Part shown: one piece after another, positions 11,256 to 19,460 of the stretch
Numbering within the stretch: the first letter of the stretch is position 1
Layout: every line of letters begins with the position of its first letter
Origin: a virus
Lineage: Duplodnaviria; Caudoviricetes
Direction: 5' to 3' (one strand)
Virus record (IMG/VR): IMGVR_UViG_3300040971_000114
Coordinates: 1 to 39,392 of that record
Length of the DNA stretch: 39,392 bases
Position numbers and translations under genes: made by a program
The notes under the pieces: model-generated
The model's database searches: none
The model's input: the letters and a program-made list of their open reading frames with translations, nothing else
What the model was told of the DNA's origin: nothing

Positions 11256-11585
11256 ATGCACGACTTATCAACAATACCATACGAGATGCACTTTAACATC
11301 ATGATATATTTATCTGTGAAAGATGCATTAGTATTTTTGAGCACAAACAAAGATCAAATAGCAGATCCTTTTGTTCACAACAAAGCAATTCAAAATTCGT
11401 TTTGGGGCGATCTAATTAACAGAGACTTTAGCTACATATATACAAAGCCTGTGTTTGATTGCAAAAGCAACTACATGATGTTTTTTAAAAAGATAAGCAT
11501 ATTCGGCAAGGAATGGGGGAAGGAGTTAATAGAGATGGAAAGGCTAACTGATGATAATATGCAAGTAGATTTGACGAAATGGTAA
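11256..11585 (+). CDS. F-box-like protein 1
   Basis: LSTIPYEMHFNIMIYLSVKDALVFLSTNK...FWGDLINRDF fits the F-box pattern LxxLPxE(I/L)xxxIxxxLxxxDxxxxxxxxK...LWxxLxxRDF; GAGGT RBS. Confidence 0.7.
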   Translation: MHDLSTIPYEMHFNIMIYLSVKDALVFLSTNKDQIADPFVHNKAIQNSFWGDLINRDFSYIYTKPVFDCKSNYMMFFKKISIFGKEWGKELIEMERLTDDNMQVDLTKW

Positions 11586-11682
11586 TATAAACTAACTAAA
11601 AATAGGGATATGATTACTAAATTATTACTAACAATAGCATTTATTTTTATTTTTCTACTATTGAAACATATAAAAAATAAAT

Positions 11683-11931
11683 ATGAAAAAAACAGTACTT
11701 TTATTGCTCGTTCTAGCTACTACAGGCTGCACAAACCAAAAGACAGCTTTAAGAACCTTAGAACTAAAAGGATATAGGGTTATGGGCTTTAATGGCTATA
11801 GCTTAACTGGATGTGATTTTGAATGGCAATATGAACACACCAAATTTGTTGCCTTTGACAAAAAAGGAGAAATGTTATCTGGCGTTGTTTGTTCAGGCTG
11901 GGGTAATAGACCGATAATTAAATTAAATTAA
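11683..11931 (+). CDS. Phage lipoprotein
   Basis: Signal peptide with lipobox-like ATTG-C; GY...GY...C...GVVCSG pattern. Confidence 0.7.
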   Translation: MKKTVLLLLVLATTGCTNQKTALRTLELKGYRVMGFNGYSLTGCDFEWQYEHTKFVAFDKKGEMLSGVVCSGWGNRPIIKLN

Positions 11932-11935
11932 AATT

Positions 11936-12124
11936 ATGAATAGATACATGGATAGATATGTTGTTTGCGATTTTTGTAAAAATGAATTTAAGATAACCGA
12001 AACTGTTTATATTGAAAGCAGAGATAAAAAAAAGCTAAATTGTTTCTGCGATGGATGCGTAAAAAGCGCGCGCATTCTAAACAATAATTATCGATTCAAT
12101 AACAATGATAAACTACAAGTGTAA
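11936..12124 (+). CDS. Small CxxC...CxxC zinc-finger-like protein
   Basis: CDFC and CDGC motifs. Confidence 0.55.
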   Translation: MNRYMDRYVVCDFCKNEFKITETVYIESRDKKKLNCFCDGCVKSARILNNNYRFNNNDKLQV

Positions 12125-12275
12125 CTTTTGCGGCAGAGCATCTAGATTTTTTCATTTGATAAAATATGAGATGAACCATTCACTTTTTGCATGCAAAGAA
12201 TGTTCGAAAATTGTGCCTAAAAACATTAGATACGACGAATTAAAAAACTATTCTAAAATAAAAAACGATGAATAA
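12105..12275 (+). CDS. Small CxxC...CxxC zinc-finger-like protein (56 aa, MINYKCNFC...)
   Basis: Translated by hand; CNFC and CKEC; overlaps both neighbours as expected in an operon. Confidence 0.55.
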   Translation: MINYKCNFCGRASRFFHLIKYEMNHSLFACKECSKIVPKNIRYDELKNYSKIKNDE

Positions 12276-12516
12276 AACTAAAAACATTAACTTGCTTTCT
12301 AAAATTTGCTTGCAGAGATATAACGCATATCCATCAGGAGTAAGCAGAAAAAATTTTAGAATATTGACAGATCAGATACTAGATGATTTTTCTATAAAAG
12401 TACTAAAGGTTAGCCCGCAAGACCAAACAACGCCATGGTCTTCTGAAACTGGGCAACAATACGAAAAGTTTTTATTGTCAGCGTATCGAAATAAATGGTA
12501 TGTAAAAAAGGCTTAA
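12268..12516 (+). CDS. Hypothetical protein
   Basis: 82 aa; last gene before the convergent RNA ligase. Confidence 0.55.
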   Translation: MNKTKNINLLSKICLQRYNAYPSGVSRKNFRILTDQILDDFSIKVLKVSPQDQTTPWSSETGQQYEKFLLSAYRNKWYVKKA

Positions 12517-12535
12517 TCTTTAATTATTCATTTTA

Positions 12536-17704: not shown

Positions 17705-17926
17705 ATGTATTTTTATAATGGTAATCATTGGTCCGCGTCTAGGTCTGTGTCTAGGTCTTGGTCTAGGGTTAGGGCTAGGTCTGTGTCTAGGTCTTGGTCT
17801 AGGGCTAGTTCTGTGTCTAGGTCTGGGGCTTGGTCTAGGGCTAGTTCTGTGTCTAGGTCTGGGGCTTGGGTTAGGTCTGGGGCGCGGTCTAGTTCTATGT
17901 CTAGATCTGATAAAAGCAAACAATGA
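17705..17926 (+). CDS. Ser/Arg dipeptide-repeat peptide 2
   Basis: Same hexamer repeat with an exact internal 36-bp duplication (SRASSVSRSGAW x2); ends MSRSDKSKQ. Confidence 0.55.
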   Translation: MYFYNGNHWSASRSVSRSWSRVRARSVSRSWSRASSVSRSGAWSRASSVSRSGAWVRSGARSSSMSRSDKSKQ

Positions 17927-17967
17927 ACATTTCGTAACATTAATTTAATTTGGAGGAATCAAAATGA
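17896..17967 (+). repeat. 72-bp direct repeat, copy 2
   Basis: Matches 17230-17301, 666 bp downstream. Confidence 0.9.
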
Positions 17968-18296
17968 CAATTACCCCTGGTATGATTTATCTTATATCTT
18001 TAGCAGATAGCATGATTGCATTATTCGTGATATTTATTATTATATCATTTATTTCTATGTTTCTTATTCGTGACCATTCAGAAGCGACGGGAAGAGATGG
18101 AACAAATAAATTATGCGTTTGTTTATTGGTTCTACTTTTTTCAATTGTTTCTTTAGTCTTTATACCAAGCAGCAAAACTTTAACTGCAATGTATGTTATA
18201 CCAACAGTAGTAAACAATAAAGAGGTACAAAAACTACCTGAAAATATCATTAAGTTTGTAAATAGTTATTTGGAAAATAATAAAGAGGAAAAATAA
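17964..18296 (+). CDS. Membrane protein
   Basis: Two hydrophobic segments followed by IPSSKTLTAMY. Confidence 0.7.
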   Translation: MTITPGMIYLISLADSMIALFVIFIIISFISMFLIRDHSEATGRDGTNKLCVCLLVLLFSIVSLVFIPSSKTLTAMYVIPTVVNNKEVQKLPENIIKFVNSYLENNKEEK

Positions 18297-18297
18297 A

Positions 18298-18636
18298 ATG
18301 TTTAAAAGAAAATATAAATTTAAAGTTTACAATGAATTCTATAGGAATGGATTTTTTTTAAATTCATTTAGAATAAACGGAAAAGATATTTGTTTGTATT
18401 ACTGGATTGATAAAAGAAAGGAATCAATTGTATTAATACTATCGGATCTTGATGATATTGACCATGTTTGCGATATTGATGATGGAGAAAATTTTGTTGA
18501 AGTTTATAGTAGTATATCCTTTGACTCTCTACATGGACATTTCCATGAAGCAATAGAACGTGTATGTTCAACAGCAAATATGATAGCTAAAGAAATTTTT
18601 ATGTATCTTTTAAAAGAGGAAACAAAAAATGATTAA
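18298..18636 (+). CDS. Hypothetical protein
   Basis: 112 aa with GAGG RBS. Confidence 0.65.
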   Translation: MFKRKYKFKVYNEFYRNGFFLNSFRINGKDICLYYWIDKRKESIVLILSDLDDIDHVCDIDDGENFVEVYSSISFDSLHGHFHEAIERVCSTANMIAKEIFMYLLKEETKND

Positions 18637-19060
18637 CTACAAAAAATTCTCAAAAACAAATCACATTACATTCTTTTCAAATTATAAAATAAAACTTGCG
18701 GAAGCAGGAGCTAAAGAAACGGAAGATTTTAAGAGTCTTCATAACTTTATTCGAGAGATTTTATTTAAATTTGAAGATAACAAAAAAGAAAGAGGCATCG
18801 ATGCAAATTATTTATTATATCAAAAAATAGTGCAAACCATCTGGTATAGCTCACTATCAAAAGATAACAAAATTAGAATGATAGACTACTACGATCTAAA
18901 TATATATGTGCCAAAGCATATAGAGAAAGAAGTAAAAAAAGCCTGGGAAGATTTATCGGACAGAATGAATGGAGTTAGAAGCAAAGATAATACTCTTGAT
19001 AGCGTGGAAAATATCAACTGTAGTTTTTGCAACCCAACATCAAAATGCATTATTCAATAA
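18629..19060 (+). CDS. Hypothetical protein
   Basis: 143 aa with GAGG RBS. Confidence 0.65.
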   Translation: MINYKKFSKTNHITFFSNYKIKLAEAGAKETEDFKSLHNFIREILFKFEDNKKERGIDANYLLYQKIVQTIWYSSLSKDNKIRMIDYYDLNIYVPKHIEKEVKKAWEDLSDRMNGVRSKDNTLDSVENINCSFCNPTSKCIIQ

Positions 19061-19076
19061 TAAAACGAGAGTAAAA

Positions 19077-19460
19077 ATGATTAATTTACCATATGAAATT
19101 CTTTATCAAATAAGTTTCTTTATGCCGGTCAAAGATATTGCATCGCTAAAGAAAACAAACAAACAAGAATTTAGCGAACCAATGGACAAATGCAAAGAAT
19201 ATTTCTGGGGAGAGCTTGGCAAAAGAGACTACGGAAAGCCATTTTCTAAAATAGAAAACAGAAAAAATGAAGACAAATATAAAATGTTTCATAAAGCCCA
19301 TCGCGCAGTTATAAATCACGGATTGACAAACTGTCTCGGCTATAATCTTTCTGCTATATTAGAATCATTTAGCAATGCGGCAATCGTATCGTTAATGGGC
19401 GAAGGACTATCTGAAAAAGAAGAAAATATTATTGTATGTTGCGCGGTCAACAAAAAATAA
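19077..19460 (+). CDS. F-box-like protein 2 (start revised to MINLPYE; 127 aa)
   Basis: INLPYEILYQISFFMPVKDIASLKKTNK...FWGELGKRDY; paralogue of 11256..11585. Confidence 0.72.
   Translation: MINLPYEILYQISFFMPVKDIASLKKTNKQEFSEPMDKCKEYFWGELGKRDYGKPFSKIENRKNEDKYKMFHKAHRAVINHGLTNCLGYNLSAILESFSNAAIVSLMGEGLSEKEENIIVCCAVNKK

Follow-up and report, generated by a model that had tools for sequence, protein, structure and literature searches.

Two old paralogous F-box-like mini-proteins encoded by an uncultured P22-like phage

The genome of an uncultured virus (Duplodnaviria; Caudoviricetes; IMG/VR record IMGVR_UViG_3300040971_000114) was analysed over its whole length of 39,392 bases, hereafter called the window, which is a complete virus genome with direct terminal repeats. 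Two small genes in it, open reading frames (ORFs) A and B, encode proteins that are real, old paralogues of each other and that are very probably homologous to F-boxes. As each of them is borderline when taken singly, the F-box case rests on their family, and both are filed here as F-box-like proteins and not as Pfam F-box members.

The two ORFs had been singled out in an initial annotation made from the sequence letters, and they were found on the plus strand at the coordinates given there (Table 1), together with the common motif that it had described (PYE, I, VKD, TNK, P, FWGxLxxRD and YxMFxK). By BLASTP, A and B were identical at 18 of 59 positions (31% over 59 amino acids, E 4e-10), and their Smith-Waterman score was 92, against a mean of 26.7 and a maximum of 57 in shuffled sequences, with none of the 5000 shuffles reaching 92. 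No similarity between the two genes was detected at the DNA level and, given the likeness of the proteins, the duplication is therefore old. The start of B was placed at 19077 and not at 18969, according to a Shine-Dalgarno-like GAGAG and to the orthologue P0005, which starts at the same residue; Shine-Dalgarno-like sites precede both genes.

Table 1. Coordinates of ORFs A and B and of their F-box-like motifs and Glu patches in the window
Feature	Coordinates	Strand	Basis
ORF A, 109-aa mini F-box-like protein	11256..11585	+	P0003, an orthologue over the full length, 45% identical
F-box-like helical motif of A, residues 4-58 through FWxxLxxRDF	11265..11429	+	PF00646 12.2 bits; profile alignment
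Glu patch of A (ELIEME, positions -20 to -15), candidate E-block	11523..11540	+	Motif level only; similar patch in P0003
ORF B, 127-aa mini F-box-like protein	19077..19460	+	PF00646 19.1 bits; P0005, an orthologue over the full length, 45% identical
F-box-like motif of B, residues 1-51	19077..19229	+	PF00646 matches and alignment
Glu patch of B (EKEE, positions -15 to -12), candidate E-block	19413..19424	+	Motif level only; P0005 has EEE in this position

With a profile built from both N-termini, 10 matches were obtained in 1.84 billion representatives, namely A itself, six relatives and three repeat artefacts (P0004, P0008 and P0010), which were dropped; near-length homologue searches with A and B returned only the proteins themselves. 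The six relatives were retrieved without the use of any F-box model, and all six match F-box models weakly, with P0007 passing the cut-off (22.0 bits). P0003 (on a 2.7 kb contig) and P0005 (on a 2.1 kb contig) are full-length orthologues of A and B, respectively, with matching C-termini. An 8-row family profile run against the sequences of the PDB gave seven matches, six of them F-box proteins, and with an 11-row profile nine of nine matches were F-box proteins (best E 0.007); single-sequence searches of the PDB with A or B gave nothing. The N-terminal L/I-P-x-E motif and the hydrophobic pattern of the family could be aligned to solved F-boxes, the profile alignments covering FBXO4, FBXO31, FBXW7, Cdc4 and cyclin F and the motif of A being aligned to the F-boxes of FBXO4 and FBXO31. 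Atlas features likewise indicated F-box clusters. When the genome was scanned in six frames with PF00646, A and B were the sole two matches among three candidates scored, B being the best F-box match of the genome (E 3.3e-5).

The AlphaFold2 model of A (mean predicted local distance difference test (pLDDT) 76.7) is confident over residues 1-60 and contains helices at residues 9-17, 21-30, 32-41 and 43-58, with a block pLDDT of 83-90. Among viral structures, 41 of the top 50 matches to this model are named F-box, mostly from giant viruses, and giant-virus F-box proteins (pithovirus, marseillevirus, orpheovirus and pandoravirus) are its closest predicted-structure neighbours. Among 48,161 PDB chains, the top eight matches consisted of Elongin A and of seven chains belonging to F-box proteins or to complexes that contain them; Z ranged from 4.7 to 6.2, the best being FBXO31 (Z 6.2, root-mean-square deviation 3.8, 84 residues aligned). 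The model of B, which was built from a two-row alignment, was unusable (pLDDT 39.5) and was not searched. Family profiles and the hidden Markov model (HMM) scores of the relatives agree with the F-box-like identity proposed in the initial annotation, and the top fold matches, at weak E and Z, point the same way.

Several results weigh against this identity or limit it. The F-box label held in part when checked by Pfam HMM: B came near the cut-off of PF00646 (19.1 bits, E 0.0012; cut-off 20.5 bits), neither protein passed it, and the Pfam scan of A as a protein gave no F-box match. The 12.2 bits of A are at the level of chance matches found in three of 42 related phages (11.6-13.1 bits). The Trp of helix 3, which belongs to the C/N-x-x-W motif of the F-box consensus and is present in FBXO4, is replaced in both proteins (TNKDQI in A, TNKQEF in B). 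No structural match to the model of A was obtained at E 0.001, Z values of 5-6 lie in a range that is common by the own warning of the fold-search tool, and the fold evidence is not independent of the sequence evidence, since F-box-like relatives were part of the alignment behind the model. PHROGs contained no family for A or B. For a C-terminal substrate-binding domain (leucine-rich repeat (LRR), WD40, ankyrin and the like), no Pfam match was found at E up to 10 in the approximately 50-70 residues after the F-box. Lacking both the helix-3 Trp and a recognised substrate domain, A and B are regarded as divergent, minimal F-boxes; giant-virus-like relatives also have no helix-3 Trp.

A third phage-borne copy, P0007, was found on a 5.5-kb phage fragment, which has CsrA, a helix-turn-helix regulator and the 17298-17678 ORF in common with the window; P0007 is also recorded from a 45-kb contig, which was not found in the viral-contig collection. 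A motif scan of metagenomes matched 23 loci, of which 22 were translated (L020 duplicates L019), and five of these 22 scored as family members, the rest being chance; the single match in the viral-contig motif scan was rejected as chance. Three other contigs with true matches are, by gene content, of an endosymbiont-type bacterium (L019) and giant-virus-like (L021 and L028), and the matches on the latter two have, like A and B, an N-terminal F-box ending in a W-x-x-L-like helix. On L019, at 9830-13215, there are tandem F-box-like proteins of 545-550 amino acids with an apparent N-terminal signal peptide, whose genes adjoin phage-type prohead protease and portal genes on a contig that is endosymbiont-like bacterial. 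A separate observation was that 14 Skp1-like genes are present on viral contigs (L127-L140), several of them almost canonical.

No homologue of A or B was found in 50,697 GenBank phage records, a result that supports the reading of the initial annotation. An F-box gene was likewise found in none of the 42 records of related uncultured phages that were covered (three portal relatives and, out of 80 tail-gene loci, the 39 longer ones; 26 of the 42 records are at least 90% complete), which counts against the best explanation given below; PF12937 had no match in these 42 relatives, this model being insensitive for the family. The F-box gene is rare, is present in at least two phages and is related to F-boxes of the protist-associated world.

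The portal of the window is P22-like (PF16510, E 1e-86), PHROG matches were obtained for terminase, head closure and DNA ejection proteins, PF11134 was also matched, and the other genes include tail fibres, a GH108 endolysin and an Rz-like spanin pair. The portal, terminase, head-closure and ejection proteins of a P22-like podophage are thus all present, and the window phage is presumably a podophage of a Gram-negative bacterium, the host type being suggested by the Rz-like spanin pair. No integrase was found in the 63-64 window ORFs scanned, nor by tblastn with the integrase-like gene of a relative; one relative, G022, is a provirus all the same. The description as a podophage without integration is in keeping with these results. 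The tail protein of the window has 2347 homologues, and none of the contigs with the 120 homologues that were listed is longer than 59 kb.

A distance of 7.5 kb separates ORFs A and B, which are set amid small plus-strand genes of early type, with CsrA, a Sak4-like annealing protein and a single-stranded DNA-binding protein (SSB) encoded between them. A relative of the window, approximately 88% alike, is contained in an independent sediment run, in which one contig spans the upstream ORF and two thirds of A (window positions 11110-11453) and another runs from the last part of B into the gene that follows (19398-19678), so both genes keep this context in a second sample.

The Glu-rich patches that had been claimed near the C-termini of A and B are present, though small. 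At least three Glu within six residues occur in the C-terminal zone of 4/63 window ORFs, A and B among them, and A, B, P0003 and P0005 combine a Glu patch with a hydrophobic tip and with no acidic residue in the last four positions; the background for these features was 1.1% of 1106 ORFs from 86 related loci, some of these ORFs being spurious. At motif level, and by post hoc criteria, this corresponds to the C-terminal E-block with hydrophobic, acid-free tip of Dot/Icm substrates, and the tail fits the E-block as described in the available text of PMC12981334. On the other side, the criteria were set after the sequences had been seen, A and B have a common ancestor, and no Glu patch is present in P0007, the copy of the other phage. 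The Glu tails are a lead towards a possible export signal, not a result, and Dot/Icm-type export of A and B is possible, with the balance slightly against it.

No specific taxon emerged from the window genes when an intracellular or protist-associated host, as predicted in the initial annotation, was looked for. The CsrA, sigma-70-like and DUF4116 genes matched plasmids of many taxa, none of them specific, and comparison of the portal with plasmids gave no host assignment for the window phage; the organism labels of metagenome-assembled genomes on the relatives are mutually incompatible, and none is Legionellales. In the portal relative L003, the 15 listed best plasmid matches of a PAS histidine kinase were 11 from Legionella and four from Endohaliclona, which we take to be placed in the Legionellales. 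L003 carries an ankyrin protein and a CDPS-like gene as well (no plasmid match was found for the latter), and G043 (L142) has a similar cassette; in L003 the cassette (2811-8438) consists of a coiled-coil ankyrin protein, the CDPS-like gene and the PAS histidine kinase with a response regulator. These cassettes suggest that a branch of the phage group may infect Legionellales. The extension of such a host to the window phage is weakened by the position of L003 and G043 among the farthest relatives (2.4-2.5 substitutions per site in the tail-protein tree, median 1.59), by the occurrence of an ankyrin gene in two of the 42 relatives and not in the window, and by another 61 cargo ORFs (59 out of 75 cluster representatives, plus two others; 11 more were scanned separately and five were left out), in which no eukaryote-like Pfam family was found.

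Bacteria are not known to have SCF (Skp1-cullin-F-box) ligases. The simplest reading of a retained F-box is therefore a eukaryotic target, and an intracellular lifestyle of the host is suggested by it. On this ground eukaryotic Skp1 is probably the target of A and B. The best explanation as a whole is held tentatively, at somewhat short of even confidence. The phage would infect a Gram-negative bacterium living inside a protist, A and B would be made early in infection, and the type IVB (Dot/Icm-type) system of the bacterium would export them through their Glu-rich tails; they would then bind protist Skp1, most likely as decoys or minimal adaptors, and the protist SCF ligases would be dampened or redirected while the infected bacterium produces phage. 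Decoys or minimal adaptors are favoured because the tail after the F-box is short and belongs to no substrate-binding family. The intact paralogues, their F-box likeness, the orthologues and the tails are observed features on which this explanation is built, host, export and binding being inferred from them. A more specific form of it, which is doubtful, is that a lytic podophage of a protist-dwelling Dot/Icm bacterium injects giant-virus-type mini F-box decoys via the secretion system of its victim during infection.

Skp1 could also be the target with another route or another host, A and B being released at lysis in the vacuole, or by another export system in a non-Legionellales endosymbiont, and aiding the survival or exit of the progeny. 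This is unlikely. It would account for the F-box protein of the second phage having no Glu patch, for the apparent signal peptide on the tandem F-box proteins of the endosymbiont-like contig and for the window genes pointing to no specific host taxon, and a 'twofold cell challenge' has been argued for phage WO (PMC5062602, available text); the setting of A and B among small early-type genes, not in lysis or virion modules, and the Glu patch kept in both orthologue pairs weigh against it. An F-box-derived fold might instead have been repurposed within the bacterium, where it would bind a bacterial protein in host takeover or counter-defence and never meet a eukaryote. The neighbourhood of small early-type ORFs, CsrA, an ssDNA-annealing protein and a sigma-like protein, the degeneracy of A and B relative to the F-box consensus, the window having no other clear eukaryote-like domain and the origin of the DNA from hydrocarbon and sediment metagenomes, which identify no eukaryotic host, would all suit such a role. 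We know of no Skp1-like partner in bacteria, however, and the closest structural neighbours are giant-virus F-box proteins, while the GenBank phages are devoid of detected homologues; a bacterial target is rated as improbable.

Usefulness to the phage is denied by a further reading, in which A and B are passenger genes, F-box fragments acquired from a host endosymbiont or, in a co-infection, from a giant virus. It draws on the empty result in the 42 related records, on the tail without a recognised substrate domain and on other sporadic host-like cargo in relatives, but two old paralogues with Shine-Dalgarno-like sites, each with a full-length 45% orthologue and matching C-termini, and a third phage copy argue for long retention, which makes this reading quite improbable. 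Least probable of all is a chance likeness, that is, an unrelated family of small helical phage proteins merely resembling F-boxes: the sub-threshold HMM scores with A at background, the weak fold E-values, the middling Z and the unusable model of B speak for it, against relatives that were collected without an F-box model and nevertheless all score as F-boxes, and against PDB sequence matches of which 6/7 and 9/9 are F-box proteins. The explanation by Skp1 decoys or minimal adaptors exported from an intracellular bacterium was retained as the preferred one.

Other features of the window were recorded for reference. The phage CsrA gene (14962-15147) is present in 14 of 43 records of the phage group, window included. 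Short direct repeats at 10266-10364 and 10506-10542, made up of CTGGGAAG and AAAGCACATC units and a 16-nt pair, are intergenic, lie beside the replication initiator (9230-10093) and are iteron- or operator-like. Low-complexity ORFs rich in Ser, Arg, Gly and Trp (17051-17260 and 17705-17926) stand on either side of a 126-aa ORF (17298-17678); no Pfam family was found for any of the three, and in L016 a low-complexity ORF of the same sort adjoins the homologue of the 126-aa ORF. An RNA ligase with an OB domain (12536-13555) and a sigma-70 region-4 protein (13898-14512) are encoded on the minus strand and a DUF4116 repeat protein (15144-15590) on the plus strand; 13887-14518, containing the sigma-like gene, is absent from a relative in run X5, in which the joint was observed. 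Tandem paralogous virion-type genes on the minus strand (37242-37979 and 38002-38736) are single-copy in relatives. Between the tail fibre and lysis genes, a minus-strand ORF (22967-23491) encodes a 174-aa protein with one long hydrophobic stretch (approximately residues 10-69), a weak Pfam IncD match below the cut-off (E 5e-4) and no E-block; a hydrophobic ORF occupies the matching position in G006, the closest relative. The 174-aa protein could act as a membrane effector of Inc type or in superinfection exclusion.

Phage-borne F-box-type effectors are already known, and the comparisons below follow the available parts of the cited texts. GogB, which is encoded by the prophage Gifsy-1 of Salmonella, is F-box-like and binds Skp1 (PMC3386239); it is a type III effector that contains LRRs, has its F-box-like region in an internal position (aa 270-334) and is encoded by an integrated prophage, whereas A and B have 109-127 amino acids, an N-terminal F-box and no LRR, and no integrase was found with them, a distinction drawn by description and not by sequence comparison. 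Phage WO, the host of which is an intracellular bacterium, carries the F-box-related PRANC domain (PMC5062602) and resembles the window phage in having eukaryote-like, F-box-related ubiquitination domains; its module groups large genes of the ankyrin, PRANC and toxin-like types in one block, and the phage integrates, in contrast to the two dispersed mini-genes of the window with their canonical N-terminal F-box in place of PRANC and no ankyrin gene. The analogy to the eukaryotic association module of phage WO drawn in the initial annotation was not sustained, the two genes being 7.5 kb apart and forming no module, with no ankyrin gene and no integrase found, and its term 'undescribed system' is too strong with GogB and the PRANC of phage WO in print. 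AnkB of Legionella and other Dot/Icm substrates share with A and B an F-box aimed, in A and B presumably, at host ubiquitination and a C-terminal Glu patch of E-block type (PMC11338181, PMC12960579, PMC12981334); AnkB-type effectors are chromosomal, possess ankyrin substrate domains and have been shown to be translocated, whereas A and B are phage-borne, have no substrate domain and are candidates for export. Giant viruses have the eukaryotic cell itself as their place of replication, and ankyrin or RCC1 domains are added in many cases, whereas a bacteriophage gene is concerned here. The Legionella phage LME-1 is a podophage of a Dot/Icm bacterium with T7-like morphology, and ankyrin-encoding phages of sponges (10.1101/608950) make proteins acting on a eukaryote; F-box is not mentioned in the available text on either (for LME-1, PMC12407071). 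Stand-alone F-box genes carried by a phage that does not integrate were reported nowhere in the literature covered, most subscription papers and supplements being outside this coverage. What is new here is the presence, in a phage that apparently does not integrate, of mini F-boxes of giant-virus type that stand alone, with no substrate domain recognised in them.

The F-box effectors of Legionella are described in the available text of PMC12960579 as gained by interkingdom transfer from protozoan hosts. For the vehicle of this transfer, a phage that carries F-box genes like those of giant viruses is a concrete candidate. A and B also hint at a eukaryote-associated host for part of the large uncultured podophage group defined by the tail-protein homologues and their small size makes tests of Skp1 binding easy. 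It is the lysogen that benefits from the phage-borne effectors known so far; should selection maintain both genes in a phage that does not integrate, the genes would serve the phage's own cycle inside a eukaryotic cell. If injection of decoys through the victim's secretion system proved true, the phage itself, and not a lysogen, would manipulate eukaryotic ubiquitination in a three-way phage-bacterium-protist control circuit, and F-box genes would have a route between giant viruses and the effector repertoires of bacteria.

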